Positions 34,638-49,151 of a stretch of 64,000 nucleotides of DNA are shown in pieces. Numbering within the stretch: position 1 is the first letter of the stretch; each line of letters starts with the position of its first letter. The DNA is from Escherichia phage UE-S1: the sequence record ON568341.1; one strand, written 5' to 3'. Under the pieces are notes generated by a model. The model was given only the letters and a program-made list of their open reading frames with translations. It ran no database searches and was not told where the DNA came from. A program made the translations under genes and the position numbers.

Positions 34638-34723
34638 AAAGTACTTGCACAGTACTGAATAAAGTGTATAATGTTTTATATCGGAAGGGGAATAGTTCCC
34701 CTCCTAACAAAGAGGAAAGTATA

Positions 34724-34897
34724 ATGGTCCAGGTAGAATTAACAGTACTGAAAGATCTGTTTTATCGGATTGGTACTACTGGCGAATATCCGAAGGGTGA
34801 TAATGCAAAACTTTACGTATCACTCGACTTATGGCAACGCGAACAATTAGCAACGGCCTGGCGTAAAGGCAAAGCAGATAGCGAGGTGAAAGCATGA
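34724..34897 (+). CDS. hypothetical early protein (57 aa)
   Basis: ATG 34724 after AGAGGAAA SD; track ORF 34622 trimmed. Confidence 0.45.
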   Translation: MVQVELTVLKDLFYRIGTTGEYPKGDNAKLYVSLDLWQREQLATAWRKGKADSEVKA

Positions 34898-35057
34898 AAG
34901 AATTCTTATTTGAAGTAGTGTTTCAAGGTGTCGGTAATAACCAACTGATTCGAACAAGTGGTTATAATGTTAACCAGGCATGGAATAACATTAAACAAAT
35001 GTACCCGAACGCTATCACATATCGCAACCCGAAAGAAGTTTAAAAATAATTGAAAAA

Positions 35058-35095
35058 GGGATTGACTCCGGTCAGTCCCTTTGCTATTATATACG
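35058..35095 (+). terminator. terminator hairpin with embedded promoter (composite element)
   Basis: AAAAAGGGATTGACTCCGGTCAGTCCCTTTGCTATTATATA. Confidence 0.55.
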
Positions 35096-35191
35096 CATAG
35101 AAACAAATTAGCCCACCGGGTGCATAAATGTATCTATTGTTTGCTGGTGGCTAGTACTATCAAGTACTGAAAACTATTTTTAAAAAAGTAC

Positions 35192-35219
35192 TTGCAAAGT
35201 ATCACGATAAGCGTATAAT
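35192..35219 (+). promoter_or_regulatory. early promoter (upstream of tandem pair)
   Basis: TTGCAA(35192-35197), 16 nt spacer, TATAAT(35214-35219). Confidence 0.55.
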
Positions 35220-35313
35220 GTTTTACATCAGGACGGGGAACGAAATAAGTAACCCCGTTAAGTAGTCCAGGAGTAAGACATACGAAAAACTCCCCTGATA
35301 AAATAGTTTGACA
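35214..35313. repeat. 100-bp exact repeat (copy 2)
   Basis: Appears identical by eye to 25301..25400. Confidence 0.7.
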
Positions 35314-35335
35314 ATAGAAAGTAAACGAGTATAAT
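35308..35335 (+). promoter_or_regulatory. early promoter (downstream of tandem pair)
   Basis: TTGACA(35308-35313), 16 nt spacer, TATAAT(35330-35335). Confidence 0.5.
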
Positions 35336-35368
35336 ACTTACATCAACCACTGATAAGGAAACATTAAA

Positions 35369-35644
35369 ATGCGGACTTTACTTACAGCTAACGAAATCGA
35401 GCAAGTACTGACTACTAATCTGGAACAATGGAAACGTGAAGCAGATATCCAGGCGGTTCAATGCCTTAACGATAAGTTAACGCCAGATGACTTAAGCACG
35501 ATTGTTGATCCACAATTTTATGAAGATATTCACGACACGTCTTTAAGCGTCGAGGATGTACTTGATAAGCACTACATTGATACTGATTTACATGTTTACG
35601 GTCGTAAAAACTTTATCACTATTCACGACATTTACAATACTTAA
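35369..35644 (+). CDS. hypothetical early protein (91 aa)
   Basis: ORF after dual promoters; AAGGAAA SD. Confidence 0.55.
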   Translation: MRTLLTANEIEQVLTTNLEQWKREADIQAVQCLNDKLTPDDLSTIVDPQFYEDIHDTSLSVEDVLDKHYIDTDLHVYGRKNFITIHDIYNT

Positions 35645-35731
35645 GTATTGACAAAGTATCTTAGTACTGTATAATAGTTTACATCAAGCGAGGGGAATGG
35701 TTCCCCTCCTAACAAAGAGAGAGAAATAAAA

Positions 35732-36055
35732 ATGGCTATGATCCTTACCCAGAAAGTAGAACTGAAAATTGTAACCTCCTTTGACATTAAAGTTAATCGG
35801 TGGACTGATAGCCACGGCAATACTTACCACTCCTGCTACGTGTCCGCATTGATTGGTGATCGCTGGGAAGACCTGGGACACGAAACCTTTACATACGGTT
35901 ACGGCACACAAGGCGAGTACACGGGTTTAGAAATCATTAAGGAAACTGTAATAGGTTTCAACCCGAAAGAGAAAGTACTACACAGAATTGAGAAAGAGAT
36001 CAACAAAGAAATTACAGTTCGCTACTACGATGTAAAACGTAAGAAAGACATGTAA
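35732..36055 (+). CDS. hypothetical early protein (107 aa)
   Basis: AGAGAGAGAAA SD after hairpin; paralog of 29894..30238. Confidence 0.55.
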   Translation: MAMILTQKVELKIVTSFDIKVNRWTDSHGNTYHSCYVSALIGDRWEDLGHETFTYGYGTQGEYTGLEIIKETVIGFNPKEKVLHRIEKEINKEITVRYYDVKRKKDM

Positions 36056-36150
36056 TAGAATCCATTTAAAGTACTATTTGACATTGCCCAGATAGTACTT
36101 TATAATAGACTCTAACTTGTAGTACTAACTCAACTAATAGGATGTATACC

Positions 36151-36546
36151 ATGATTACTAAATTCTACGCTACCCGTGAAGCTGCCCGTATTGTTGCACG
36201 CGAGGAAGGAGCAGCATTTAAAGACATGGGCAAAGATGCAACGAAAGGTCAACGCTGGGCCGTACAGTTCAAAGAAATCTCTGATATTGTGAATTCACCT
36301 GAGCCAGTACTGACAGCAGCAGAACTAAAACGAGCGGATATGCTGGCGGCAATACTTGACGCACAAGATGAGTTTATCGCTGACTCTGATATCAAAGTAC
36401 AGGTAAACCACACCGCATGGACTCACGCGGATCACCTGGCAAACCTTAAGCGTCCAAGTGAACTGATTCGCAACCAGAAAGAGATCCGACATGATCGTAA
36501 GGGTAATCGTGTAACAGTATACAGTAAACGCCGCCAGGTTATCTAA
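36151..36546 (+). CDS. hypothetical early protein (131 aa)
   Basis: ATG 36151 after AGGA; paralog of 24443..24709; followed by hairpin GGCGGGA..TCCCGCC + T-run. Confidence 0.55.
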   Translation: MITKFYATREAARIVAREEGAAFKDMGKDATKGQRWAVQFKEISDIVNSPEPVLTAAELKRADMLAAILDAQDEFIADSDIKVQVNHTAWTHADHLANLKRPSELIRNQKEIRHDRKGNRVTVYSKRRQVI

Positions 36547-36607
36547 TAACTTGCAGTACTAACAACACGGCGGGATCAGTTCCCGCCTTTTTTATAGGAC
36601 AAACAAA

Positions 36608-36862
36608 ATGATTAAGGTTCAACTATATAAAGATAACATCTTACGGGTACACTATAAAGCACCTCAGAGAATCATCACAAAGGCCGTACAGCTTGCTAAT
36701 GAGTTTATTAATGGTAACCTATTACCTAGGAAGTTAAGCAACGGAAAACTGCGTGTAATCGACGTGGACACTAACAACAGGATAGTAATCGAGAACACAG
36801 GAAAAATAAACCTATATGAACACCAACAATACAATAAGAAAATAAAACTAATATCACGTTGA
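36608..36862 (+). CDS. hypothetical early protein (84 aa)
   Basis: ORF with AGGA SD-like. Confidence 0.45.
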   Translation: MIKVQLYKDNILRVHYKAPQRIITKAVQLANEFINGNLLPRKLSNGKLRVIDVDTNNRIVIENTGKINLYEHQQYNKKIKLISR

Positions 36863-36915
36863 CAGTACTCAAATGTTTTAGTATTATGTACACATACCAA
36901 CACGGGAGAAACAAA

Positions 36916-37134
36916 ATGAAATTATCTAAAATCGAAAAGAAAACTATTGATGAAGCAGTTAAGCACGGTTATACCTTTCGTAATGATTCACATTTTACCA
37001 ATTTTCAACAGGGGTATCGTACTATTAAAAAACTAATTGACAAAGGTTTATTAGTTGAAGTCAATAATGGGAACGGTATCGAGTATCAGCCAACCCAAGA
37101 CGCATTATCTTTAAAGAAATATAATATTATCTAA
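36916..37134 (+). CDS. hypothetical early protein (72 aa)
   Basis: ATG 36916 after GGGAGAAA; promoter TTGACA(36860)..TATTAT upstream. Confidence 0.5.
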   Translation: MKLSKIEKKTIDEAVKHGYTFRNDSHFTNFQQGYRTIKKLIDKGLLVEVNNGNGIEYQPTQDALSLKKYNII

Positions 37135-37191
37135 TTGACAGTACTCAAATGTTTTAGTACTATATGTACATACCAACACGGGGGAAACAAA

Positions 37192-37434
37192 ATGATTACT
37201 TTAGAAAAACGTATCAAAGAAACTACATCGCTGGTGGAACTGTTAACAGTACTCAAATGTAAAACAACACCATTTAGCACGCCGGACTTTATTAATATGG
37301 TTGATGTTAATGGTCGCTATCGTATCACGGTCGAACAAGGAGCGGCGAAAGTATTCAGTACTAAAAACACGAAGGAAGTGATCCACGCCGTTAATGTTAA
37401 AAAAGTAGTTGCCATTGATAGTAAAGTACTGTAA
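37192..37434 (+). CDS. hypothetical early protein (80 aa)
   Basis: ATG 37192 after GGGGGAAA; promoter/leader duplicated from 36859-36915. Confidence 0.5.
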   Translation: MITLEKRIKETTSLVELLTVLKCKTTPFSTPDFINMVDVNGRYRITVEQGAAKVFSTKNTKEVIHAVNVKKVVAIDSKVL

Positions 37435-37465
37435 TATAGTTTCATTAACTCAAGGAGAACATGCA

Positions 37466-38050
37466 ATGCGTAATTATACTAAATTCATCCGTACACTGTC
37501 AGAAATGGAAACCAACAAAGAGATCCTTTCAGCTTGTCGGTTAGCTGGCCTGGAGATCATCGGTGCTGGTTCTTCCCGTATAGTTTTCGCTTTAAATGAT
37601 CGGTTAGTGATTAAGGTCGCGAATTGTGATGCGGGTGTAGAACAAAATGAAACTGAATGTAAGGTATGGAATTTTTTAGACTATGACCGCCCTCAGTTGA
37701 AACAGTACTTTGCAAAGGTGCATATGCATTTATGCGATCCTGATAATATGTTTATCGTTATGGATCGGTTGAGTACTGCAAGCAAAGGTAGTGTGAAGCA
37801 CGTAAACGCGTGCAATGAATTAAAGTACAATATTAAACGTAATGCAATCGAACGCCATCACCGCTTTGCTGATGCACTACAACACGTCGATGATACATTA
37901 TCAACACTAACGATAAGAGATATCAGAAAACAGAATATCGGCCAGGATCGTAATGGCCTTATTAAAGTACTTGATTACGGTTTAACCTGCAATATCTGGA
38001 ATCAGTACTATAAAAAGCGTGATGTGGCAGCAAGTAAGGTAACACGATAA
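37466..38050 (+). CDS. protein-kinase-like protein (194 aa)
   Basis: G-loop-like GAGSSRIVF, VIKVA lysine motif, RDIRKQNIG catalytic-loop-like, KVLDYG DFG-like; AAGGAGAA SD. Confidence 0.55.
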   Translation: MRNYTKFIRTLSEMETNKEILSACRLAGLEIIGAGSSRIVFALNDRLVIKVANCDAGVEQNETECKVWNFLDYDRPQLKQYFAKVHMHLCDPDNMFIVMDRLSTASKGSVKHVNACNELKYNIKRNAIERHHRFADALQHVDDTLSTLTIRDIRKQNIGQDRNGLIKVLDYGLTCNIWNQYYKKRDVAASKVTR

Positions 38051-38067
38051 AAAAGATTAAAAAAGGG

Positions 38068-38105
38068 ATTGACTCCGGTCAGTCCCTTTGCTATTATATA
38101 TCCAT
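38068..38105 (+). terminator. terminator hairpin with embedded promoter (composite element)
   Basis: AAAAAAGGGATTGACTCCGGTCAGTCCCTTTGCTATTATATA. Confidence 0.55.
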
Positions 38106-38191
38106 TGAGAGATAACTCACTGACCCATAGGGTGCGGAAGTGTATCTATTATATAAGTATTCAGTACTGAAAACTATTTTTAAAAAAGTAC

Positions 38192-38219
38192 TTGCAAACT
38201 ATCTCAATGAGCGTATAAT
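38192..38219 (+). promoter_or_regulatory. early sigma70-type promoter
   Basis: TTGCAA(38192-38197), 16 nt spacer, TATAAT(38214-38219). Confidence 0.55.
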
Positions 38220-38274
38220 GTTTTATATCGAGAGGGGGAAATGGTTCTCCCTAGTACTAAAAGGAATCAAGACG

Positions 38275-38496
38275 ATGACTACTATGACCTGCGTTCACGC
38301 TTCAAATCTTCTGAATGATGCAGCATTTAAAGCAGGTGAAGAATATCAATGCTATCGGGATGAAAATAAAAAAGTTTTTGTAGTTGATAATAATGGTTTC
38401 CATATTGAATTACAATCCGGCTTCACTGGTTTAAATGGTAAATCAGTATGGGGCGTACAGGATGATAAAGGTACATATCATTTTAAACGTAATTAA
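38275..38496 (+). CDS. hypothetical early protein (73 aa)
   Basis: ATG 38275 after AAAAGGAAT SD and leader hairpin GGGGGAAATGGTTCTCCC. Confidence 0.5.
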   Translation: MTTMTCVHASNLLNDAAFKAGEEYQCYRDENKKVFVVDNNGFHIELQSGFTGLNGKSVWGVQDDKGTYHFKRN

Positions 38497-38577
38497 GTAT
38501 TGACAAAGTATATCAGTACTGTATAATAGTTTACATCAAGGGGAGAATGGTTCTCCCCACTAAAAGGAAACAAAATT

Positions 38578-38850
38578 ATGTCCAGCTACTCCGCTACTAT
38601 GATCATTAAAGATATGAACGGTAATCCTACTTCTGCTGGTGGATCATTTGGAAACATTAATTTAGATGGTCGGTTATCCATGCAATCAGCCATCGATGCA
38701 GCGAAAGAAGTTTTTAAGAATGAATGTACTGTTAGTAAGCTGGATTATATGGGTTTCGCTATCGAGAAAACTACTCGTTTTGTGAACTACAAAAATCCAC
38801 TGATGATTGATACTAACCTGAAAGCTAACGAAGTGGGGTACTTATTATGA
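38578..38850 (+). CDS. hypothetical early protein (90 aa)
   Basis: AAAAGGAAA SD after hairpin; promoter TTGACA..TGTATAAT. Confidence 0.55.
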   Translation: MSSYSATMIIKDMNGNPTSAGGSFGNINLDGRLSMQSAIDAAKEVFKNECTVSKLDYMGFAIEKTTRFVNYKNPLMIDTNLKANEVGYLL

Positions 38851-39038
38851 CAGTAGAAGAAGTAAAAAAAGTACTGGCAGTACTACGATATCATAATCAT
38901 TGCAAGGTGAAGAATGATCCTGATTATCTTGATTCATCCCTGGAGGAAGACACCTTGAACGCTATAAGCCATATGCAGACATTAGCAAAGCGTATGACTG
39001 AAAAGAACATGCCGGACTATATCGGAAATAAAATTTAA
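38847..39038 (+). CDS. hypothetical early protein (63 aa)
   Basis: ATGA overlap with previous gene. Confidence 0.45.
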   Translation: MTVEEVKKVLAVLRYHNHCKVKNDPDYLDSSLEEDTLNAISHMQTLAKRMTEKNMPDYIGNKI

Positions 39039-39124
39039 AAAGTACTTGCATTGTAGTTAGATTAACGTATAATGTTTTATATCGAGAGGGGAAATGGTTT
39101 CCCCTCAAGTCCAGGAGATACACC

Positions 39125-39388
39125 ATGAACACTATCGAAATCACTATCAATGCACACGTATACGACAACGTAGTACTGCAAACTACTATGACCGCCAATG
39201 ATACCAGTACTTTGCGGAATACTGTTATTAGTGCTGTATGTGCCGCTATCGGTGATGTATCCCTGGAAAATTCAGAACACATCAACAACGGTTTCACTAT
39301 GTGCAAACGTGATAACGCAAAACATATCATCGTGGAAGGTTACGGCGGTGTAGAATTTAATGTTTATATGAAAAAAGTACTTGCATAA
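39125..39388 (+). CDS. hypothetical early protein (87 aa)
   Basis: CAGGAGA SD after hairpin GGGGAAATGGTTTCCCC. Confidence 0.5.
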   Translation: MNTIEITINAHVYDNVVLQTTMTANDTSTLRNTVISAVCAAIGDVSLENSEHINNGFTMCKRDNAKHIIVEGYGGVEFNVYMKKVLA

Positions 39389-39455
39389 TAACTAAAACAA
39401 AGTATAATGTTTTGCATAGGGGGAGATATCCTCCCCCACTAAAAGGAGTAATAAA

Positions 39456-39680
39456 ATGGCTAACTTTGATGAACTGATGCGGGAAGTAGCTTACCTGGCA
39501 GAAGAGAAGAAATCATTCGATTCTATCTATAACACCGCTCACCGTGATTCAGTACTGGCATGTAACCAGGATCAAAAAGATGAACTAATCGCCACCTATC
39601 ATGAAGCATGGAAGTACTACCGACAATGGGAGAAAGAAGAAAGTGAGTCTACCATTGACGGCCTCAATAATCTAATCTAA
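39456..39680 (+). CDS. hypothetical early protein (74 aa)
   Basis: AAAAGGAG SD after hairpin GGGGGAGATATCCTCCCCC. Confidence 0.5.
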   Translation: MANFDELMREVAYLAEEKKSFDSIYNTAHRDSVLACNQDQKDELIATYHEAWKYYRQWEKEESESTIDGLNNLI

Positions 39681-39756
39681 AAGTTTTATTTCAGTACTAT
39701 TGACATAGCTTGATAGTACTGATGTAATAACTTTACTAACTACAAGGGGAAACATA

Positions 39757-40014
39757 ATGGATCAATTCACACAATATCGGGTAAATCCTCAAGCTATGGC
39801 CTACGTAGAAGACCATAAAACGTTACCAGTACTGCAACCAGTTAAAGGCCGTATCTATCGTGGCCTTGCCTGGGATACGGCCCAGGATGGATATAAAACC
39901 GTCGCCGTGGGTATGTATTGCGGTGATGGTGAATGGTTTGATCCAAATAATCCGGTATCCATTGACAGTACTGAAAAAATGAAATGGGCCGACTACATCG
40001 AAGATATTTCATAA
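39757..40014 (+). CDS. hypothetical early protein (85 aa)
   Basis: AAGGGGAAA SD; promoter TTGACA..GATGTAAT. Confidence 0.5.
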   Translation: MDQFTQYRVNPQAMAYVEDHKTLPVLQPVKGRIYRGLAWDTAQDGYKTVAVGMYCGDGEWFDPNNPVSIDSTEKMKWADYIEDIS

Positions 40015-40104
40015 AAACTATTTGACAGTACTAACCAGTAATGTATAATGTTTTACATAGAGCGGGGGAATAGTTCTCCCGCCAATAGTTTGGAGTAAAA
40101 CATT

Positions 40105-40305
40105 ATGTCTATCGCTATCGCCCTGGTTGAAGTACTGAAAGAAGCTAAAGCCAACCTTATCGACGTAAAGATCCAGGAACTACAAAACGGCTTAATCGGC
40201 TGTACTTGTACCGCTGGTGGAGCGGCAGACTATCGAGAACACGAATCACTCGAATCACTGGTTCGGTATCTTACCATGATCGTTGATGATTGGAGAATCA
40301 TCTAA
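40105..40305 (+). CDS. hypothetical early protein (66 aa)
   Basis: TGGAG SD after hairpin GCGGGGGAATAGTTCTCCCGC. Confidence 0.5.
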   Translation: MSIAIALVEVLKEAKANLIDVKIQELQNGLIGCTCTAGGAADYREHESLESLVRYLTMIVDDWRII

Positions 40306-40322
40306 CAAAAAAGAATAAAAAA

Positions 40323-40360
40323 AGGGATTGACTCCGGTCAGTCCCTTTGCTATTATATAC
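40323..40360 (+). terminator. terminator hairpin with embedded promoter (composite element)
   Basis: AAAAAAAGGGATTGACTCCGGTCAGTCCCTTTGCTATTATATA. Confidence 0.55.
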
Positions 40361-40550
40361 GCATAGACAAAAACTAGCCCACAGGGTGCATAGGTGTATC
40401 CAAAATATATAGTTAATAACGGTGAGTAACTATCTGCTGGTGGAACTAAAACTATTAATAAAAAAGTATTGACAAAGTATATCAGTACTGCAATAATGTA
40501 TCTCGTAGGGCGGCAATGGTGCGACGGCCCACAAAGTTAGGAGATTCACC

Positions 40551-40883
40551 ATGAGTACTTCAATCGCTATCGTTAAAGCTTTCATCCGTACTAATGTTTC
40601 CTCTGTATTCATCGACGGCCTCGACCGTAACGTAGAATACTCAATCATTATCGCACAAACGGCAAACGGTTCTCGGTACATCCTGAATGATAGTGAAGCA
40701 AATCACTACTACTTCACTAAAGCCACTGGCTTTAAACGCATCGATGCTGATGTAGTATACGCTAAGATGAATAAGCTGGTAGACAAGATTAACGCGAAAG
40801 GTACTATCGATTTACAGTACTGGACCGAAACCGATCCAGAATATGGATCTCACCGCTACCTGAATCCAGGTATCAAAATGTAA
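40551..40883 (+). CDS. hypothetical early protein (110 aa)
   Basis: TAGGAGA SD; promoter TTGACA(40470)..TGCAATAAT. Confidence 0.5.
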   Translation: MSTSIAIVKAFIRTNVSSVFIDGLDRNVEYSIIIAQTANGSRYILNDSEANHYYFTKATGFKRIDADVVYAKMNKLVDKINAKGTIDLQYWTETDPEYGSHRYLNPGIKM

Positions 40884-40972
40884 AAAGTACTTGCATAGTA
40901 CTTAGATTCATGTATAATGTTTTACATAGAGAGGGGGAAATGGTTCTCCCTCCTAAATTAAGGAGTTTTATC

Positions 40973-41374
40973 ATGACCTTCTCAATCACTTCCTTCGCTG
41001 ACGTTTTAGTACTGGCCCGGACTTTTGGTAAAGCTGGCCTTGAGCACGCTGTAAGTAATGGTCATATGCACCCTGAATATTGCCGCATCATCGGTAGCTG
41101 CAAACGTTGGGCCGTGTCCCGTAACATTGAGATTGAAAACTTCAATGACGGCAACAACGAATATACAGTTGATGCAGTATTCGAAGCCGTTGATCTCGGC
41201 GGTATCTATAACACTAACCTGAATGATGTGCGTATCGTTCGCACGGGGTTCGGTGCTTATGATGTATCTATCCGTGAAGCTATGGACAAGGGATACATTA
41301 GCAAGGACCAGTTAGCTTACATCATGCAGCAAACTAAGGAACGTAACGAAGCACGTACTATCTTAGGGTTGTAA
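40973..41374 (+). CDS. hypothetical early protein (133 aa)
   Basis: ATG 40973 after TAAGGAG SD and hairpin GAGGGGGAAATGGTTCTCCCTCC. Confidence 0.55.
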   Translation: MTFSITSFADVLVLARTFGKAGLEHAVSNGHMHPEYCRIIGSCKRWAVSRNIEIENFNDGNNEYTVDAVFEAVDLGGIYNTNLNDVRIVRTGFGAYDVSIREAMDKGYISKDQLAYIMQQTKERNEARTILGL

Positions 41375-41442
41375 GCGTTACACATCACCAAACATCATAG
41401 GCCGCCTTGTAGCGGCCTTAACTATATCAGGAGTTCATACAC

Positions 41443-41652
41443 ATGAACTATACAGTATACAGCGTTCTAGGCACTATTGCAGGCGTACATGATAACGTCG
41501 ATGGTGCTATGCGTACAGTACTGCAACAGGTTCCACTAAAGCCTAAGACCATTAAGCAGATGACAGCACGACTAACCAGGGCGACGGCTGGCGTGGAAGT
41601 ATGGCAGGACTATGGGGATACACAGATAATCGTAAGCGTAACGAAGGATTAA
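41443..41652 (+). CDS. hypothetical protein (69 aa)
   Basis: CAGGAG SD; last gene of higher-GC block. Confidence 0.5.
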   Translation: MNYTVYSVLGTIAGVHDNVDGAMRTVLQQVPLKPKTIKQMTARLTRATAGVEVWQDYGDTQIIVSVTKD

Positions 41653-41680
41653 TGCGTAAAAGGATTTAGTACTGATTCAG

Positions 41681-41747
41681 AAAAAAGTCAAGGCGTTTTT
41701 TAAATTATGCGTTAAAAAAATGCATAGGTAATCCCTTGACTTTTTTG
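41681..41747. promoter_or_regulatory. large inverted repeat between early block and LGTNYQE array
   Basis: AAAAAAGTCAAGG (41681-41693) vs CCTTGACTTTTTT (41734-41747); AATGCGTA-like motif three times nearby. Confidence 0.4.
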
Positions 41748-41871
41748 AAATAAAAGGGATTGGACTATGGCAAAATGCGTAGGGGGCTAAAGGGCGGGTA
41801 ACCTTAGCGACTTCGTTAAAGGGGTATTACGAATAAAATGTTATTGACTTTTTATATAAATCGTATAAAAT

Positions 41872-42099
41872 ATGATTGATAATAATTTTAAGGGAGTCCC
41901 TGTGCGTATTTTAACTCAAGCAGAACACCACGAAAGACTTATCAATAACATGGCTATGATAATGTATAAGTCCCATGACCGTGGTATTGCATATAAGCGT
42001 GAATTAGTACTGGAACTATTCATTGGGACTAACTATCAGGAAAGGTATGTCAACGATTGGATTTGGTATTTAATTGAAGATATAACGAGTAAACTATGA
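41872..42099 (+). CDS. LGTNYQE-family small protein (first of tandem array)
   Basis: Motif FIGTNYQERYV; ATG is only 2 nt after TATAAA, so start may be leaderless or internal. Confidence 0.45.
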   Translation: MIDNNFKGVPVRILTQAEHHERLINNMAMIMYKSHDRGIAYKRELVLELFIGTNYQERYVNDWIWYLIEDITSKL

Positions 42100-42290
42100 T
42101 AATTTTAACTAAAGAAGAATATCAATCACTGTTACGTAAAAACTACGTAAAGATTTACAATACAGCCACACACGTAGAACGAATGGAGTTATACCTTTTG
42201 ATTACATTGGGAACTAACTATCAGGAAAGATGGGTGATTCAATATATGGATACATTGAAAAATAAAATATTGTCCACGAGGAAACAATGA
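42096..42290 (+). CDS. LGTNYQE-family small protein
   Basis: ATGA overlap; motif LGTNYQERWV. Confidence 0.55.
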   Translation: MIILTKEEYQSLLRKNYVKIYNTATHVERMELYLLITLGTNYQERWVIQYMDTLKNKILSTRKQ

Positions 42291-42496
42291 AAATCATAAC
42301 ACACAGACAAGCATTGAGTCGTATGGTGAAGTATCTTGAATTGATGGTGTCTATACCAAAGAGCTTACCAAAAACTGAAAGAGAGATACATTCAGCAGAG
42401 TATCGTCTATTAGCAGTACTGAATACTAACTACCAAGATGAATATGTTGACGATTGGATTCTATCATTAATAGAAGATATAAAGAGTAAACTATGA
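42287..42496 (+). CDS. LGTNYQE-family small protein
   Basis: ATGA overlap; motif LNTNYQDEYV. Confidence 0.55.
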   Translation: MKIITHRQALSRMVKYLELMVSIPKSLPKTEREIHSAEYRLLAVLNTNYQDEYVDDWILSLIEDIKSKL

Positions 42497-42708
42497 ATAT
42501 CATTGCGAACTCACATCAATATACCGAACGCGTCGCTGCCAGACAACTTGAAATCCTCATAATATACGAAGAAACTTCTGATTTAAACTTAGCTGAGGTA
42601 TTGGAAAATGAAATACTTTTGGGTGCATTCTTGGGAACAGACTATCAGGAGTATTATGAGGAAAAGTATTTGTCATCTCTTGAGAAATACATCAGGAGTA
42701 AACAATGA
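42493..42708 (+). CDS. LGTNYQE-family small protein
   Basis: ATGA overlap; motif LGTDYQEYYE. Confidence 0.55.
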   Translation: MNIIANSHQYTERVAARQLEILIIYEETSDLNLAEVLENEILLGAFLGTDYQEYYEEKYLSSLEKYIRSKQ

Positions 42709-42932
42709 AACATTTAAGTATAAGAGAGAAGAATAAAATTATCATCAATGTCATGAACCGATATAATCAACTATTGGATAGAGAATACTCAAGTTCATAT
42801 GTGCACAGGATAAACACTACGGATGTACGCATGATGGCTGTACTGGGGACAAACTATCAGGAAAGTTATGTTCATGAGCACATAGTTGCACTCACTAATT
42901 ACATAATGGACAAATGTAATGAACATCATTAA
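42705..42932 (+). CDS. LGTNYQE-family small protein
   Basis: ATGA overlap; motif LGTNYQESYV. Confidence 0.55.
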   Translation: MKHLSIREKNKIIINVMNRYNQLLDREYSSSYVHRINTTDVRMMAVLGTNYQESYVHEHIVALTNYIMDKCNEHH

Positions 42933-43143
42933 TAACTTTGAATACGAGGCCCGTGTTAAGAGTGCCAGAGAAAAAGAGAACACCATTTACTTCACTATGA
43001 TGTACTTACAATGGACTGAAATTGAAGAAAAGGTTGCTGAAGTATGGATGTTGGAATTCATGGGGACGCAGTATCAGAATATGTTTGCGGGTGAGTATAT
43101 CAATGTTCTTATGAAACAAATAGAAAGGAAGGAAAAGAACTAA
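42919..43143 (+). CDS. LGTNYQE-family small protein
   Basis: motif MGTQYQNMFA. Confidence 0.55.
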   Translation: MNIINNFEYEARVKSAREKENTIYFTMMYLQWTEIEEKVAEVWMLEFMGTQYQNMFAGEYINVLMKQIERKEKN

Positions 43144-43179
43144 TGGAGGGATGCTGTACTTTATTTGAACTTTTATATA

Positions 43180-43228
43180 TTCATGAACACATAGTTGCCC
43201 TCACAAATCTAATAAAGGATAAATGTAA
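43180..43228 (+). pseudogene. remnant 3' fragment of an LGTNYQE-family gene
   Basis: ~85% identical by eye to 3' end of 42705..42932 (..HEHIVALTN..DKC..); no start codon. Confidence 0.45.
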
Positions 43229-43486
43229 ATGAAACACTTGACTGATGATGAACATGAAACTATAATTCGTAAACTAACCCCCATCACAAGGATAGTATAC
43301 GGTGATCCCAGCCTTACATGGAACCAAATGCAAGCTAAAGTTAATGAGCTATGGTTGCTGTACTTTATGGGGACTCAATATCAAGATAAGTTTTGCACAG
43401 AATATATCGAACAATTAACGAATGTTATACAGGATAAACTAAATGAACGAATTGTGGAAAAATATGAAAACTTTATCAAGCATTGA
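43229..43486 (+). CDS. LGTNYQE-family small protein
   Basis: motif MGTQYQDKFC; AAAGGA SD. Confidence 0.55.
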   Translation: MKHLTDDEHETIIRKLTPITRIVYGDPSLTWNQMQAKVNELWLLYFMGTQYQDKFCTEYIEQLTNVIQDKLNERIVEKYENFIKH

Positions 43487-43715
43487 GTATCAGACTGCCC
43501 TCTTCTCTCTTCTAAATACCCTCCGCACGAACAATAAACTTTATAATTCCCGTGAAGCTGATATTGTCAACGCTGATGTATATCTTAATAAATTCATTGG
43601 GACTAACTATCAAGAACTGTTTGTTTTACGATATATCTCTGCACTAAGAAACGAAATATCAGATAAAACCCGACAAGCCAGAAGAGAATGGAAGAAACAA
43701 TGCGACACAGACTAA
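43443..43715 (+). CDS. LGTNYQE-family small protein
   Basis: motif IGTNYQELFV; overlaps previous gene end. Confidence 0.5.
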   Translation: MNELWKNMKTLSSIEYQTALFSLLNTLRTNNKLYNSREADIVNADVYLNKFIGTNYQELFVLRYISALRNEISDKTRQARREWKKQCDTD

Positions 43716-43951
43716 ATCACAAAATGTATTGTAAACTATTACAGGAACTGACACAGAAACACTATAATACAATATCTTCCATATTACCCTATGATATCAT
43801 GCGTTTAATTCATAGTGAGGCAGAGATGTTAGTACTGATGACCGGTACTGATAAAATAGCAATCACCAGATCGATAGAGCAATATATTGATGCACACTGT
43901 CAATGTATTAGAACTGAGATATGGAGGCGAGTAAATGAAAGTACTGAATGA
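43688..43951 (+). CDS. LGTNYQE-family small protein (divergent)
   Basis: motif MTGTDKIAITR. Confidence 0.45.
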   Translation: MEETMRHRLNHKMYCKLLQELTQKHYNTISSILPYDIMRLIHSEAEMLVLMTGTDKIAITRSIEQYIDAHCQCIRTEIWRRVNESTE

Positions 43952-44150
43952 GTATCAGTATCATTGGAGGTTACAAACTATAAGAGGGAAAGTTGTTAGT
44001 ATTTCTTTAGACAAGTCTATTGCACAAGAGGACAAATGTGTTATAATAGCTGAAATGAAGTTGGGTGTATTTGTAGGAACAAACTATCAAAACATCTACA
44101 CTGACGTATTATTAAGTGCCTTACGCAACAAGGTGTTATCCAGAGAATGA
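43935..44150 (+). CDS. LGTNYQE-family small protein
   Basis: motif VGTNYQNIYT. Confidence 0.55.
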   Translation: MKVLNEYQYHWRLQTIRGKVVSISLDKSIAQEDKCVIIAEMKLGVFVGTNYQNIYTDVLLSALRNKVLSRE

Positions 44151-44365
44151 GAAAATTAATAGGTTACGAATATGTTAAGCTTCTGAAAACCTGTAGTATT
44201 AGCAGGGTAAAGATTCAATCTGATAAGAGTATTCCTGTTGAACTAAAGTACGCAATGATGGCTGAACTTTATGTAGGTGCACTATTGGGGACAAACTATC
44301 AACAAATGTATGTAGACCTATGGGTTGACGCTCTACAGAAAGAGGTCCAAAGTAAATGCAAATGA
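44147..44365 (+). CDS. LGTNYQE-family small protein
   Basis: ATGA overlap; motif LGTNYQQMYV. Confidence 0.55.
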   Translation: MRKLIGYEYVKLLKTCSISRVKIQSDKSIPVELKYAMMAELYVGALLGTNYQQMYVDLWVDALQKEVQSKCK

Positions 44366-44577
44366 TTCATTTATCTTACTATGAATATCAAAAACGTTTA
44401 AATGCATCAAGAGGTATAAGGATTCAAATCTTCAATAACAAAAGATTGAAATCTGAAGCCAAAAAAATCAAAATCATAGAAGCAGAGTTGTGCAACTTTC
44501 TAGGGACGAACTATCAGGAAGGTAAGATAAAAAACTATCTTAGAGAACTAATGATTAGTATCAAGAGTAAATGTTAG
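44356..44577 (+). CDS. LGTNYQE-family small protein
   Basis: motif LGTNYQEGKI. Confidence 0.55.
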   Translation: MQMIHLSYYEYQKRLNASRGIRIQIFNNKRLKSEAKKIKIIEAELCNFLGTNYQEGKIKNYLRELMISIKSKC

Positions 44578-44581
44578 GCAG

Positions 44582-44839
44582 ATGTACATGAAAATGATTA
44601 AATTATCTCAAGCAAAATATAAAGAACGCCTGGAAAAAATTACACCTAAACTTAATGAAATCCATCACGGAGAAGTCATTAAACACGGAAATAAGATGAT
44701 TATGAAACTTGAGTTAAAGGTGGGTGCATTCATAGGAACAAACTATCAGGAGTATTATGTAGATGAATACATAATCGCACTTAAGAGATACATTGGAAGA
44801 AAACTATATCTACAAACTAAAGAATTGTATTGCAAATAA
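44582..44839 (+). CDS. LGTNYQE-family small protein
   Basis: motif IGTNYQEYYV; true start may be ATG 44588. Confidence 0.5.
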   Translation: MYMKMIKLSQAKYKERLEKITPKLNEIHHGEVIKHGNKMIMKLELKVGAFIGTNYQEYYVDEYIIALKRYIGRKLYLQTKELYCK

Positions 44840-45120
44840 ATGTGAGGTTGATGAACATGCAAATGATTAATTTAAGTAAAGATGAATATACCGAGCGTAT
44901 GACAAAAATTACGCACAAACGTAATACAATCTATCACAACCCAGAAATTCAACACAGTAAGAAAATGATTATGATGCGTGAGTTAAAGATGGGTGTATTC
45001 TTAGGAACAAACTATCAAGATACAGAAGTAAATCGCTTAATCGCGGAGTTACTACTGGAAATCAGAGGTAAGCTGTACTTTCATCAAATGACCCAACCAC
45101 TGAGGTGTACTAAGAAATGA
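44830..45120 (+). CDS. LGTNYQE-family small protein
   Basis: motif LGTNYQDTEV; true start may be an internal ATG near 44857. Confidence 0.5.
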   Translation: MQINVRLMNMQMINLSKDEYTERMTKITHKRNTIYHNPEIQHSKKMIMMRELKMGVFLGTNYQDTEVNRLIAELLLEIRGKLYFHQMTQPLRCTKK

Positions 45121-45332
45121 TCAACATCACATTGCAAGAAAGATTCATCCGAATCAACTATGCAATTACCAAATTAGATGCTACTATAGGATTCCAAAGT
45201 CTACCGTTCCAAACAAGAATGATATTAGAGTGCGAAGCTAAATTGGGTGTACTGTTAGGAACGCAACACCAACAACGATATGTGGAAATCTGGATTGATC
45301 TTTTAACCCAAAATGTACATGAGAAAATGTAA
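45117..45332 (+). CDS. LGTNYQE-family small protein
   Basis: ATGA overlap; motif LGTQHQQRYV. Confidence 0.55.
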   Translation: MINITLQERFIRINYAITKLDATIGFQSLPFQTRMILECEAKLGVLLGTQHQQRYVEIWIDLLTQNVHEKM

Positions 45333-45569
45333 ATGAAAAATGAAATGATATACTTAACGAATGAAGAGTTTCAAGAGAAGATGTTAAAAATCTATGATAA
45401 TACTCTTGAGTACGTTCCAAATCAATCAATATATGAAGTGTCTGCGAATGTATTATTTCAGAAGCTACCATACGTTCTTGGTACTGATAAACAAGAATTT
45501 ATGGTCAAAAATATGATTGAACATCTTATGATGAGTATTAAGGAAAAAGTAAATGCAAAAACAAAATAA
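45333..45569 (+). CDS. LGTNYQE-family small protein
   Basis: TAAATG junction; motif LGTDKQEFMV. Confidence 0.55.
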   Translation: MKNEMIYLTNEEFQEKMLKIYDNTLEYVPNQSIYEVSANVLFQKLPYVLGTDKQEFMVKNMIEHLMMSIKEKVNAKTK

Positions 45570-45816
45570 AATGATATACTTAACACCTGCTGAGTTAACA
45601 GAAAGACTAGTTAAATCCAGAAGATATACAAATCAACTTCCTCACAACCCAAATCAAAGCCCAGCGGAAAGGAGTGCAGAAGTTTTATTCCAATCACTAC
45701 CATACCTTCTTGGAACTAATAGACAAGAGTATCATATCGAACGTATAATTAAATATCTTAAAATTACTATTAAGGAAAAGATACATGCTCAAGAATTTAA
45801 AAATCCTAACAGCTAA
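45553..45816 (+). CDS. LGTNYQE-family small protein
   Basis: motif LGTNRQEYHI. Confidence 0.55.
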   Translation: MQKQNKMIYLTPAELTERLVKSRRYTNQLPHNPNQSPAERSAEVLFQSLPYLLGTNRQEYHIERIIKYLKITIKEKIHAQEFKNPNS

Positions 45817-46027
45817 TGAATATCATAAGATTGTAATGACGACTAATAGTGCAATTTCTAAAAAATCAAATCCCAAATACATACTGGAACACACATTTGA
45901 AGAACGACAATTAACTTTAGTTGAAGCAAAACTTCTTGCACTCCTAGGAACAAACTATCAAGAAGAGTACGTTAGAAAACTAATATACCTTTTAACTAAA
46001 CATATTAGAAAAAAGAAAAACGCATGA
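45785..46027 (+). CDS. LGTNYQE-family small protein
   Basis: motif LGTNYQEEYV. Confidence 0.55.
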   Translation: MLKNLKILTANEYHKIVMTTNSAISKKSNPKYILEHTFEERQLTLVEAKLLALLGTNYQEEYVRKLIYLLTKHIRKKKNA

Positions 46028-46254
46028 AACACTTGACAGATGATGAACATGGGCTTATAGTAATGGATGTAATCAACATCGAATACAAAAAGTTGATACG
46101 CTACCGTTGTTATGAAGATAAGCAACTCGTTCTAGAAGAACAGAAGTTGTTTCGACTCTTAAACACAAACTACCAAGCACAATACGAAGAATCGTATATG
46201 TACCTTTTGGCGAGGAAAGCAAAAAGAGATTATGAAAATTTTAAGCGAAGGTGA
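46024..46254 (+). CDS. LGTNYQE-family small protein
   Basis: ATGA overlap; motif LNTNYQAQYE. Confidence 0.55.
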   Translation: MKHLTDDEHGLIVMDVINIEYKKLIRYRCYEDKQLVLEEQKLFRLLNTNYQAQYEESYMYLLARKAKRDYENFKRR

Positions 46255-46447
46255 TGCAGTAATATTACTTATCGAGAATTCACGTAAATTCGTAAACATA
46301 ACACTGTCTGATATAGATGAAGATGACAAAGAAGTACTGAGAGCAGATTTAAGAGTACTGTTACATCTCGGAACAAACCTACAAGAAAGATATGTAGAGT
46401 TCTACATTGATGAACTTAAAGAATCAGTACTGAAAAGATGCAAATGA
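46232..46447 (+). CDS. LGTNYQE-family small protein
   Basis: motif LGTNLQERYV. Confidence 0.55.
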   Translation: MKILSEGDAVILLIENSRKFVNITLSDIDEDDKEVLRADLRVLLHLGTNLQERYVEFYIDELKESVLKRCK

Positions 46448-46665
46448 AAATCATTACTGACGAAGAATACCTAACAATCATAAATGGACTGTTTTTGAAG
46501 CTATATGCTATTAACATATCAAACCTACCAGATATGGATAAAATTATTAAGAGAAATGAAATCTATGTTCTAGCTACCCTGGGAACTAACTATCAAGAAT
46601 ACGATATTAATGATTATATTAAGACACTTAAACGAGCGATTGAACTAAAATGCCAAAACCACTAG
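46438..46665 (+). CDS. LGTNYQE-family small protein
   Basis: motif LGTNYQEYDI. Confidence 0.55.
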   Translation: MQMKIITDEEYLTIINGLFLKLYAINISNLPDMDKIIKRNEIYVLATLGTNYQEYDINDYIKTLKRAIELKCQNH

Positions 46666-46865
46666 GAACAGCAGAATACATTGAACTCATGGGATTACAC
46701 TTCTCATCCTTTCAGAAACTTATGCGAGAATCAAAGAATGATTTAGAATATACCATCAGAGGTTCAGATTTAAGAATGCTTCTCACCCTAGACACAGATT
46801 CCCAAGAGCGATTTGTCAATGAGCACATTAGAGCACTTTTAATGGAAATTCAAAGTAAACTATGA
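46650..46865 (+). CDS. LGTNYQE-family small protein (divergent)
   Basis: motif LDTDSQERFV. Confidence 0.5.
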   Translation: MPKPLGTAEYIELMGLHFSSFQKLMRESKNDLEYTIRGSDLRMLLTLDTDSQERFVNEHIRALLMEIQSKL

Positions 46866-47077
46866 AGGAAATATCAAACCAAGAGTACTTGGCACTATTC
46901 AGAAAGAATAATCATAAATTTATGGCACTTGATACAAGAACTGATATAGGGGAACTTGAAAAAAATCTTTTGCGTTCAGAGATGATAGTACTGACACTTT
47001 TAGGAACACAGCATCAAGAGAGAACTGTTAATTCATATATTGAGATTCTTACGAAGCTTATACAGGAAAAACTATGA
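46862..47077 (+). CDS. LGTNYQE-family small protein
   Basis: ATGA overlap; motif LGTQHQERTV. Confidence 0.55.
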   Translation: MKEISNQEYLALFRKNNHKFMALDTRTDIGELEKNLLRSEMIVLTLLGTQHQERTVNSYIEILTKLIQEKL

Positions 47078-47295
47078 GAATCATAACACAAACAGACATA
47101 TTTAAGTTAGCAAGAGAACATACATCTGAAATTGATGCTATAGTATCAAAAAGTTACAATGACCCTTATACACAAGATGTACACTACAATGAATTATGGG
47201 TGTATATACTTTTAGGTACAAATTATCAAGAGCAAGCAGTACAGAAGTATTTGACAGCCTTAAGTACTGCTATTGCTAATGGAATAGGTGTTTAA
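47074..47295 (+). CDS. LGTNYQE-family small protein
   Basis: ATGA overlap; motif LGTNYQEQAV. Confidence 0.55.
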   Translation: MRIITQTDIFKLAREHTSEIDAIVSKSYNDPYTQDVHYNELWVYILLGTNYQEQAVQKYLTALSTAIANGIGV

Positions 47296-47539
47296 AATGC
47301 TAGTACTGACAGAACTAGAAATGTATCATAGATTTAACAAGTACTATCATTTACTTAAGCCTATACAGAGGATTAAATGTCCATTTGAAGAGAAACAGGT
47401 ATTAATTTATGAGCATAAGTTATTTGTATCATTAGGTACGAATGAACAAGAGTATTATTTGAAGTTGTACTTAATTACTTTAATTGAATTGATTAATCAC
47501 AAAACTCAGAAAGCTAAGAAATCTAAAAATGAAAACTAA
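47288..47539 (+). CDS. LGTNYQE-family small protein
   Basis: motif LGTNEQEYYL. Confidence 0.55.
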   Translation: MFKMLVLTELEMYHRFNKYYHLLKPIQRIKCPFEEKQVLIYEHKLFVSLGTNEQEYYLKLYLITLIELINHKTQKAKKSKNEN

Positions 47540-47867
47540 TATTCAACTCAAGGTATACATATCTTATGAATCTATATACATCAAATGCAGTCTATGTAAA
47601 GATGTAATGGATTATAAAGGTAAGCCATTCACAATTACTTACAGTCTAACAGGAGGTTTTTATATATCTTTTGTTGATTACGAAAATAAAATATACAAGC
47701 ACATTGATATTAAAGATTTAAGTACCTTGTCAGATGAGGAATACTTTCAAGAATCATTAGTATGGGATTTAGAGTTTCCTATGACATTAGTACACAAAAT
47801 GATAGTTCTAATGAAAGAAACTAAACCTGAGCCGAGTGGTTATGAAGAATTCATTATTGAGTATTAA
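47529..47867 (+). CDS. FQxSLVxD-family protein (first member, interleaved with LGTNYQE array)
   Basis: motif EEYFQESLVWDLEFPM. Confidence 0.55.
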   Translation: MKTNIQLKVYISYESIYIKCSLCKDVMDYKGKPFTITYSLTGGFYISFVDYENKIYKHIDIKDLSTLSDEEYFQESLVWDLEFPMTLVHKMIVLMKETKPEPSGYEEFIIEY

Positions 47868-47879
47868 GAGTACTGATAT

Positions 47880-48095
47880 ATGAAAATATTATCATACAAA
47901 GATTATAGTAAGCTTATCAGTGCTTTGCAACCAGAAATTAGGAGAATTAATTCTCTTCCTGTATCTAATGCAGAATGTACAGTACTGAAAAAAGAGTTAA
48001 TATTAAAACGCACAGTAGGTACTAACTATCAGGATAATAGTGTTCGAGATTTAATTAGAGGGTTAATGAACACAATAAAGGCCAAGTGCCATTGA
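47880..48095 (+). CDS. LGTNYQE-family small protein
   Basis: motif VGTNYQDNSV. Confidence 0.55.
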   Translation: MKILSYKDYSKLISALQPEIRRINSLPVSNAECTVLKKELILKRTVGTNYQDNSVRDLIRGLMNTIKAKCH

Positions 48096-48405: not shown

Positions 48406-48722
48406 AATTTAATATAGCAAAAACATCGAATGTATGTATATTTGGTTATGCAGATGAGTTAGGTGATCTTGACATTCTTTTGTACAAAAAGGATGGTGTT
48501 ATGCATTTCAAGTACCAGGATGAAGAGGCAGACAATTATCCTTTACCTAATTTAGTACAAATGCAGGAAGAGGAATTATTCCAGTACAGCTTAGTATATG
48601 ACATTGATATTTGCACGATGCCAGTACTAATTAATATTCAAAAAGTGATGCTCGATGTGTTTGATAGGCTAATACAAGGCACACAAGGAAGAACCATATA
48701 TGTCAATGTACAAGACAATTAA
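48402..48722 (+). CDS. FQxSLVxD-family protein
   Basis: ATG 48402 after GGAGAGGTGGAG SD; motif EEELFQYSLVYDIDICTMP. Confidence 0.55.
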   Translation: MKFNIAKTSNVCIFGYADELGDLDILLYKKDGVMHFKYQDEEADNYPLPNLVQMQEEELFQYSLVYDIDICTMPVLINIQKVMLDVFDRLIQGTQGRTIYVNVQDN

Positions 48723-48915
48723 TCAAGAATGGAAGACCCAAAAATACAGAGAATTCAATAGGAATTTTACAAAAGACGAATTGAATATAAAAACAACAGA
48801 ATTTGATATGTTTATTTTTCTCGGAACACGTTCACAGGAGCAATTTGTTCATTATTATATAAATTCGTTGCGAACGGAGATAGTATGCAAAACAAAGGGT
48901 ATTATAAAAAGGTAA
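48700..48915 (+). CDS. LGTNYQE-like small protein (divergent)
   Basis: motif LGTRSQEQFV. Confidence 0.5.
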   Translation: MSMYKTINQEWKTQKYREFNRNFTKDELNIKTTEFDMFIFLGTRSQEQFVHYYINSLRTEIVCKTKGIIKR

Positions 48916-49151
48916 ACCAACATTTGTACGCTACAAAGTACAGGGATTTTTGTTTAAAGGGTGGTGATGAAGATTTTTCTTTGCGATTATCAGAATTTAA
49001 TCTGTTATTTTATCTTGGTACATCGGAACAAGAAGAAATGGCACAGAAATTTATCAAGCACCTTGTACAAAAAATTAATATGCAAATTTTGATGCTTAAG
49101 TTACAGAATGAGATAAATGAATATGAACCCAACAATAGTACTGGATCTTAA
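48885..49151 (+). CDS. LGTNYQE-like small protein (divergent)
   Basis: motif LGTSEQEEMA. Confidence 0.5.
   Translation: MQNKGYYKKVNQHLYATKYRDFCLKGGDEDFSLRLSEFNLLFYLGTSEQEEMAQKFIKHLVQKINMQILMLKLQNEINEYEPNNSTGS

Follow-up and report, generated by a model that had tools for sequence, protein, structure and literature searches.

The window described here is a 64,000-nucleotide stretch of Escherichia phage UE-S1 (record ON568341.1), an Asteriusvirus-type jumbo coliphage about 88% identical to its relatives G17, PBECO4 and 121Q. Between positions 41902 and 48095 it carries an array of small tandem genes that encode paralogs of a single protein family, called family 1 below. The array is best explained as an old family of small proteins of Rak2-like jumbo phages, cytoplasmic and absent from the virion, that has expanded by birth and death. 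The favoured reading of its function, plausible rather than probable, is that the copies form an early polycistronic set of diversified small binders that serve host takeover or anti-defence.

An earlier reading of this stretch made from its letters alone (the sequence-only reading) had described about 30 tandem copies from 41872 to 48095. That observation is confirmed with small corrections. A family profile was built from 28 window open reading frames (ORFs) and run against all six-frame segments of the window. It finds 30 members, all on the plus strand and in one frame each: 26 in 41902-48095, two at 48700-49151 and two at 60515-60902. The paralog array stands, with its count corrected to 26 members, one non-member ORF and one decayed copy. 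The four further copies expected at 48.7-49.2 and 60.5-60.9 kb were recovered, and the distal pair, which lay outside the seed alignment, scored E 2.8e-7 and 7.3e-14. Beyond the 30 members, nothing in this window-wide search falls below E=1e-3 except one remnant (E 8e-4). An independent, non-circular profile, phrog_4148 (PHROGs v4, function unknown), matches 27 of 29 members at E<=1e-3; its best match (E 2e-26) covers profile positions 1-72 of 74.

The members and the features between them are listed here, with lengths in amino acids (aa) and E values from the family hidden Markov model (HMM).

41890-41896, plus strand: Shine-Dalgarno AAGGGAG of copy 1
41902-42099, plus strand: copy 1, 65 aa, GTG start (HMM E 7e-20)
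42096-42290, plus strand: copy 2, 64 aa (HMM E 2e-18; ATGA junction)
42287-42496, plus strand: copy 3, 69 aa (HMM E 5e-23; ATGA junction)
42493-42708, plus strand: copy 4, 71 aa (HMM E 2e-18; ATGA junction)
42705-42932, plus strand: copy 5, 75 aa (HMM E 5e-24; phrog_4148 E 4e-16)
42919-43143, plus strand: copy 6, 74 aa (HMM E 4e-22)
43143-43229, plus strand: decayed copy (remnant), the only sizeable intergenic gap (frame segment 43095-43229, HMM E 8e-4)
43229-43486, plus strand: copy 7, 85 aa (HMM E 1e-26; phrog_4148 E 3e-21)
43464-43715, plus strand: copy 8, 83 aa (HMM E 2e-20)
43700-43951, plus strand: copy 9, 83 aa, divergent, with an insertion in the motif loop (HMM E 1e-17; alignment)
43935-44150, plus strand: copy 10, 71 aa (HMM E 5e-23)
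44147-44365, plus strand: copy 11, 72 aa (HMM E 6e-25; phrog_4148 E 3e-20)
44362-44577, plus strand: copy 12, 71 aa (HMM E 1e-23; ATGA junction)
44594-44839, plus strand: copy 13, 81 aa, the modelled member (HMM E 4e-27; AlphaFold2 model, see below; phrog_4148 E 2e-26)
44863-45120, plus strand: copy 14, 85 aa (HMM E 1e-25)
45117-45332, plus strand: copy 15, 71 aa (HMM E 2e-21)
45345-45569, plus strand: copy 16, 74 aa (HMM E 2e-19)
45571-45816, plus strand: copy 17, 81 aa (HMM E 1e-21)
45785-46027, plus strand: copy 18, 80 aa (HMM E 3e-22)
46024-46254, plus strand: copy 19, 76 aa (HMM E 2e-17)
46232-46447, plus strand: copy 20, 71 aa (HMM E 9e-21)
46444-46665, plus strand: copy 21, 73 aa (HMM E 3e-24; phrog_4148 E 4e-22)
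46650-46865, plus strand: copy 22, 71 aa (HMM E 1e-19)
46862-47077, plus strand: copy 23, 71 aa (HMM E 1e-22)
47074-47295, plus strand: copy 24, 73 aa (HMM E 5e-23)
47297-47539, plus strand: copy 25, 80 aa (HMM E 1e-19)
47529-47867, plus strand: non-member, 112-aa ORF of family 2 with EE-x-FQ-x-S (no family-HMM match; phrog_13866/15629; motif census)
47880-48095, plus strand: copy 26, 71 aa (HMM E 6e-22; phrog_4148 E 3e-15)
48700-48915, plus strand: copy 27, 71 aa, outlying pair (HMM E 7e-19)
48885-49151, plus strand: copy 28, 88 aa, outlying pair (HMM E 2e-14)
60515-60733, plus strand: copy 29, 72 aa, distal pair (HMM E 3e-7; not in seed)
60711-60902, plus strand: copy 30, 63 aa, distal pair (HMM E 7e-14; phrog_4148 E 2e-16; not in seed)

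Start codons were picked by their register with the family N-terminus, M-K-h-L-T. With starts so aligned, the main-block proteins are 64-85 aa long; they are small paralogs as first described, within a narrower range than the 64-96 aa proposed. The first gene had been drawn from 41872, where the ATG abuts a promoter-like -10 box. GTG 41902 is the likelier start of copy 1, with AAGGGAG upstream and an ATG at the homologous position in relatives.

The genes are packed in a way that suggests translational coupling. Among the 25 junctions between consecutive members of the main block, 11 are ATGA and eight are overlaps of 14-32 nucleotides (nt). Two have a 1-nt spacer (TAAAATG), and three have gaps of 12-23 nt. 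The other two are the 85-nt gap where the decayed copy lies and the interval occupied by the 112-aa ORF. The coupling that the sequence-only reading saw is retained as a prediction, while its statement that most neighbours overlap by ATGA or TAATG gives way to this mixture. All 30 ORFs are intact, and their starts and coupling are conserved. In the remnant, positions 43155-43213 are 63% identical in DNA to the C-terminal half of copy 5, and G17 retains a 53-aa gene there.

The paralogs share little sequence. Their pairwise identity has a median of 25% (range 11-51%), and in the alignment only a T is invariant, with a Q and one L above 90%. The profile consensus is MKILT..EY.krl.k...kln.I.....l...ek.i...ElkLL.fLGTNYQE.YV..YI..L...I.sKlkE. 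The LGTNYQE core reported earlier is a conserved motif more than a fixed string: the exact heptapeptide occurs in 6 of the 30 copies, GTNYQ in 13 and G-T-x-x-Q in 25. The contrast between a variable N-terminal half and a conserved core near the C-terminus holds in numbers, since mean column entropy is 2.86 bits in columns 1-40 and 1.54 bits in motif columns 48-55.

AlphaFold2, supplied with the paralog alignment, models copy 13 as a three-helix bundle with a predicted local distance difference test score (pLDDT) of 96.3 and a predicted template-modelling score of 0.81. The helices span residues 10-29, 35-49 and 56-83, and a bridge links N-terminal residue 6 to residue 53 in the LGT loop. Taken with standard helix-capping rules, the model suggests that L-G terminates helix 2 and that T-x-x-Q/E is the capping box of helix 3. 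LGTNYQE would then be the turn and cap between the two helices, and the other conserved positions (i, i+3/4, i+7) would form the hydrophobic core. Columns outside core and turn are variable among both paralogs and orthologs. The 30 proteins are hydrophilic and free of hydrophobic segments, with isoelectric points (pI) of 4.5-9.9 (above 8.5 in 15 of the 30) and net charges from -7 to +9. Because core and turn columns are conserved while the other columns and the charge vary, the idea of a conserved scaffold with a diversified surface is borne out. The further suggestion of the sequence-only reading, that such a set would act as a library of small binders or inhibitors, is plausible.

Searches for relatives of known function returned little. 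No member reached a curated cut-off in scans of Pfam-A and NCBIfam, which gave isolated weak single-member matches only; a scan of PADLOC, which covers defence systems, gave three unrelated single-member matches. A profile search of Protein Data Bank (PDB) sequences found no relative of the family, and Foldseek against BFVD found the family itself only, with no informative fold match. The bundle does not have the features of a tri-helical helix-turn-helix domain, namely a short recognition helix and a likeness to known domains of that kind.

The array genes are real and under purifying selection, and they are slightly less constrained than their neighbours. Pooled Nei-Gojobori estimates against five relatives give omega, the ratio of nonsynonymous to synonymous change, of 0.34-0.39, compared with 0.24-0.31 for about 15 neighbouring genes outside the family. 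Within the alignment, the N-terminal 40 columns have an omega of 0.43 and those around the motif 0.21-0.28. A lack of codon-level conservation had been named in advance as the outcome that would speak against an extreme expansion of genuine coding genes. What was found across orthologs is a proportion of nonsynonymous differences (pN) well below that of synonymous ones (pS), with Fisher p from 1e-26 to 1e-39.

Individual copies can be followed from phage to phage. Nearly every copy has a positional ortholog in G17, slurp01, SD-15_S21, Turkey3, vB_Ec-M-J and A4, with 59-100% amino acid identity, whereas the closest paralog of a window copy within its own genome is 26-65% identical. In relatives the array occupies the same site, between homologs of window genes 41443 and 48160 and just after the direct terminal repeat (DTR). 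In two uncultured phages, L008 and L009, 13 copies stand in tandem, flanked by homologs of the same genes as here; the flanking proteins are 41-63% identical to those of the window.

Copy number differs among these phages. The main block holds 26 copies in the window, 29 in G17, 30 in slurp01, 27 in SD-15, 28 in Turkey3, 26 in vB_Ec-M-J and 21 in A4; the overall range is 20-30 in Asteriusviruses and 13-30 when distant relatives are included. G17 has four copies without an ortholog in the window and itself lacks copy 26. An impression that PBECO4 lacks half the array was rejected, as split alignments and sparse annotation had produced it. Adjacent copies are slightly more alike than non-adjacent ones (29.4% and 25.4% identity, p=0.025), and 27 of the 30 window copies have their nearest relative in the same genome. 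Tandem paralogs, variable copy number and neighbours that tend to be closest are the marks of a multigene family evolving by birth and death. Some window alleles are strongly divergent, for example copy 3, which is 59-62% identical to all relatives. The synonymous divergence (dS) of adjacent array genes jumps from 0.02 to more than 1, which points to allele replacement by recombination.

Of 35 matching GenBank phage records, 34 are 80-90% identical to the array region and one is below 80%. All 35 are Escherichia or Salmonella jumbo phages, and those assigned to a genus are Asteriusvirus (G17, Sharanji, slurp01, phAPEC6, PBECO4 and others). In these relatives, all genes covered by the match are annotated "hypothetical protein". 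An exhaustive profile search of 1.84 billion representative proteins returned 90 clusters only and no cellular homologs; its named matches are all Asteriusvirus phages or phage contigs of about 350 kb in E. coli assemblies. In several cases the record of a member reads "hypothetical protein [Escherichia coli]" and its contig is 343-360 kb long; these contigs are Asteriusvirus genomes and reflect either a carrier state or contamination. Beyond Asteriusvirus, at least 14 family-1 members occur in small clusters in Klebsiella phage K64-1 (Alcyoneusvirus), and the AT-rich metagenomic contig L006 has 12. The family is therefore older than the genus. A tblastn search with large neighbours of the metagenomic relatives L006 and L008 matched no known phage. 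In phages UB and EC.P1, a 269-aa ORF (P0087) joins a family-1 domain (residues 1-70) to a domain that is separate in RaK2 and K64-1. As two genes are annotated at this place in the records, the ORF may be a real fusion or an artefact of a frameshift or of gene calling.

The sequence-only reading did not recognise the family. It is indeed uncharacterised; it is also catalogued, as phrog_4148, and present in those 35 records. Hua et al. mentioned an array in 121Q in 2017 and took it as genome expansion by tandem duplication (PMC5646251), a statement that the phAPEC6 paper repeats and that most probably refers to the array studied here. The array was thus already known from dozens of deposited genomes, a PHROG and a literature mention, and this published record is of its existence only.

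The two halves of the copies seem to have different histories. Similarity matrices of the N-terminal and C-terminal halves are uncorrelated (Mantel r 0.07), and in only 3 of the 30 copies do both halves point to the same nearest paralog. Mosaicism is clearest in copies 1 and 3 (C-terminal half 72% identical, N-terminal half 15%) and in copies 16 and 17 (N-terminal half 58%, C-terminal half 32%). The motif Asn codon is also biased: in 19 cases between 42025 and 48056, AAC stands to other codons as 16:3, compared with AAT:AAC of 82:40 elsewhere in the same genes (p=3e-5). Together, the uncorrelated halves and the AAC bias suggest, but do not prove, that halves were exchanged at the motif. A signal at the DNA or RNA level as the reason for the motif was largely rejected, since dS of the motif columns is normal or high (0.45) and there is no Rfam match; the AAC bias leaves some nucleotide-level conservation unaccounted for. 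A stretch of 15-17 nt (GGNACNAACTATCAR) at the motif codons is the sole DNA-level micro-homology common to many copies.

A bolder proposal builds on this exchange. The family could be a germline-encoded repertoire of mini-binders shuffled by recombination, in which the LGTNYQE stretch would be both the turn that determines the fold and the shared micro-homology for crossing-over. Swaps between the helix 1-2 half and the helix 3 half would then give new combinations of surfaces. This is rather unlikely. If true, one scaffold would neutralise a changing set of host defence or takeover targets.

The position of the array bears on when it may be expressed. Two features lie upstream of copy 1.

21923-41804, plus strand: DTR equivalent, about 20 kb (left end about 21923, inner boundary about 41804)
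41844-41871, plus strand: predicted sigma70-like head promoter, TTGACT-16-TAAAAT, with an A/T-rich upstream element

Evidence for the DTR comes from two relatives. In vB_Ec-M-J, nt 1 of the genome aligns to window position 21923, the annotated DTR is 21,525 bp long and the first gene of the array begins at 21,624. In fEgEco12 a DTR of 20,993 bp was established by PhageTerm and restriction digests (PMC13070987). Both repeats end 4 nt past the point aligned to window 41800. As both boundaries map to about 41,804, the array opens the unique DNA that follows the left DTR, starting about 100 nt into it. GC skew reverses sign at about 22 kb, where the physical end of the genome maps.

The DTR equivalent is predicted to contain at least 20 near-consensus sigma70 promoters (TTGACA-16/17-TATAAT with an A/T-rich upstream element), and the predicted head promoter of the array belongs to this class. 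G17, Turkey3 and vB_Ec-M-J have kept it; A4 has another site, TTGACA-17-TATGAT, in its place. On the plus strand of the DTR equivalent (about 21923-41804), dozens of spaced small genes each follow a near-perfect sigma70 promoter, and many of these promoters are followed by TTTACATCAAG and a GGGGAG...CTCCCC hairpin. In A4 a 272-aa gene is inserted between the DTR boundary and the array (L005, 3120-3938), and L009 likewise has one of 277 aa. No terminator-like sites were found on the plus strand within the array.

A further signal is an absence. The heptamer ATAAATA is the predicted core of late promoters in the related phages CBB and GAP32 (PMC5259590). It occurs 0 times on either strand of the 64-kb window, with 47 expected, and is the most depleted 7-mer. 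This depletion, given the match to the late core, suggests that late promoters have been purged from the region. TATAAATA is likewise missing from both strands of the window, with 16 expected. In CBB, a region of short ORFs with RpoD-like promoters by the terminal repeat was proposed as an early host-takeover region (PMC5259590). Among the 62 proteins detected by mass spectrometry in phAPEC6 virions, none is an 8-10 kDa array gene product (PMC7247149, Table 1), although the method can miss small proteins. Position, promoter, terminator, ATAAATA and virion results together predict that the array is a non-structural, early, polycistronic unit.

These pieces can be arranged into a scheme for the favoured reading. 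Host sigma70 RNA polymerase would make one early mRNA of about 6.2 kb and 26 genes, starting at the promoter 40 nt inside the unique DNA and assisted by read-through from the strong DTR promoters. Termination-reinitiation at ATGA and short overlaps would carry ribosomes across the cistrons, so that all copies would be made together. Each product should fold into the same three-helix bundle, fixed by its hydrophobic core, the N-terminal MK-h-L-T strand and the L-G-T-N-Y-Q-E turn, which would cap helix 2 at its C-terminal end and provide the capping box of helix 3. Each would present a different surface, and each retained copy would bind its own target, most likely a host protein (takeover targets or defence systems). 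Copies would arise, disappear and be reshuffled through unequal crossing-over and through exchange of halves at the motif.

Several points weigh against this scheme. Neither sequence nor fold likeness ties the family to any characterised inhibitor in Pfam, NCBIfam, PADLOC, PDB or Foldseek/BFVD. Omega is well below 1, and a crude analysis gave no clear positively selected site, which is weaker than expected for the interface of an arms race. The head promoter is missing from SD-15_S21 through a deletion (L003, about 2990-3010), and promoter-like sites in the region are no commoner than in shuffled sequence. The literature yielded no functional or transcriptomic data for any Asteriusvirus.

The array has a companion, family 2, whose proteins of 100-240 aa carry the motif EE-x-[YF]-FQ-x-S-h-V-x-D. 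It forms a second large tandem expansion at 47.5-64 kb. Homology between the two families was rejected (hhalign probability 0.2%), and the predicted fold of family 2, four strands and two helices, is unlike that of family 1. A T4 Mrh-like identity for the 112-aa ORF was also rejected, as the match was weak and was not reproduced across family 2. At 58070-58154 (plus strand), inside the family-2 ORF 58022-58510, ARAGORN calls a tRNA-Cys with the unusual anticodon ACA, which is probably a false positive.

The association of the families allows another interpretation, in which family-1 proteins are cognate partners, chaperones, adaptors or inhibitors of family-2 proteins within one system. The two are interleaved in three lineages. 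In the window, a family-2 gene at 47529 lies inside the array, one at 48378 precedes the copies at 48700 and 48885, and those at 60001 and 60889 flank 60515 and 60711. L008 and L009 are likewise interleaved, and 40 kb of K64-1 contain at least 14 genes of family 1 and at least 15 of family 2. However, numbers and order are unpaired: 25 consecutive family-1 genes precede the first family-2 gene, and long runs of family 2 (49.8-60 kb) lack any family-1 copy. No fusion of the families is seen, and both may simply share a permissive "accordion" region. A joint system is unlikely. The copies might alternatively be aimed at other phages, at mobile elements or at superinfection exclusion, while still being diversified binders. 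Such targets would go with the same anatomy, and allele replacement and mosaic dS (0.02 to above 1) fit turnover driven by conflict; nothing speaks for competitors specifically, however, and the observations fit host-directed binding equally well. This is quite unlikely.

Other explanations need no outside target. With much the same low probability, the copies could serve the phage itself, as nucleic-acid binders or as regulators or chaperones of transcription, translation, replication or assembly; small helical proteins, half of them basic, would suit such work, as would coupled equimolar synthesis. A different proposal, after the "ratchet" of Hua et al. (2017), is that the array is largely dispensable duplicated DNA, tolerated or needed by a large headful capsid. 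Their interpretation of 121Q as expansion by tandem duplication favours it (PMC5646251), as do the copy number of 13-30, the one decayed copy and an omega somewhat above that of neighbours. Mere ballast is improbable, however. None of the 30 ORFs is disrupted, and their starts and coupling are conserved; purifying selection acts strongly (p<=1e-26), single orthologs have been retained in different species, and the family persists in Alcyoneusvirus and uncultured relatives. Finally, the paralogs might co-assemble into one hetero-oligomeric structure, which would account for coupled, roughly equimolar translation of 26 cistrons and would suit helical bundles, as these often oligomerise. Viable relatives differ in copy number, however, surfaces are not conserved and no array protein is found in virions, so that this arrangement is very improbable. 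The set of early, diversified binders directed at the host is preferred over each of these.

Two other groups of genes in the window are worth recording. At 7481-18024 (minus strand) lie nine tandem paralogs of about 375-395 aa, possibly the ~41-kDa "DNA condensation protein" paralogs of phAPEC6 virions (gp003-010, gp549, gp551). Tightly packed ORFs of 104-141 aa at 3922-6747 (plus strand) may be another small paralog set.

The array matters because selection maintains about 6.5 kb of coding capacity (30 genes) for one orphan fold, in a clade with genomes that are about 80% unannotated. With 30 members, the family offers an unusually tractable entry to the hundreds of small early ORFans of jumbo phages. 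Its copies amount to a natural mutational scan of one scaffold, a single deletion would remove most of them, and every ortholog lends itself to a search for its partner. Should the copies be target-specific binders, they would supply new inhibitors of E. coli proteins or defence systems, together with a small, evolvable scaffold of three helices. If not, the array becomes a clean test case for "capsid ratchet" genome growth by tandem duplication.

The closest known systems are the arrays of other Asteriusviruses (121Q, PBECO4, G17, slurp01), which are of the same family at the same locus, with copy-by-copy orthology of 59-100% aa identity. The window differs in having its own complement of copies (26, compared with 29 in G17) and divergent alleles. 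Within the same phage, family 2 resembles family 1 as a tandem expansion in the same predicted early region, interleaved with it, but it is unrelated and has a different fold.

Blocks of early host-takeover genes at or near terminal repeats are known from the pre-early region of T5, the host-takeover module of SPO1 and the Tre genes of Twort-like phages. Like the array, which lies next to the terminal repeat, these consist of many small genes on one strand, at or by a long direct terminal repeat, with host-type promoters, which in the array are predicted. Their genes are mostly unrelated to one another, whereas some 30 paralogs of a single fold make up the array, which is located just outside the repeat and is predicted to be expressed early. 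Anti-CRISPR and anti-defence loci offer a likeness of another kind, as their proteins are small (<100 aa), often helical, fast-evolving, clustered, without database relatives and expressed early, as is predicted for the array. Such loci combine unrelated families, often with a regulator gene; no known anti-defence member was matched in the libraries scanned, which cover anti-defence proteins poorly.

Terminal multigene families also occur in eukaryotic DNA viruses, such as the multigene families (MGF) 100, 110, 360 and 505 of African swine fever virus (ASFV) and the terminal families of poxviruses, described as "genomic accordions". These resemble the array in their tandem paralogs near a genome end, differences in copy number, birth-and-death evolution and a conserved fold with divergent sequence. 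They share no homology with it, its proteins are smaller (8-10 kDa), and modulation of the host is established only for some of the ASFV and poxvirus families.

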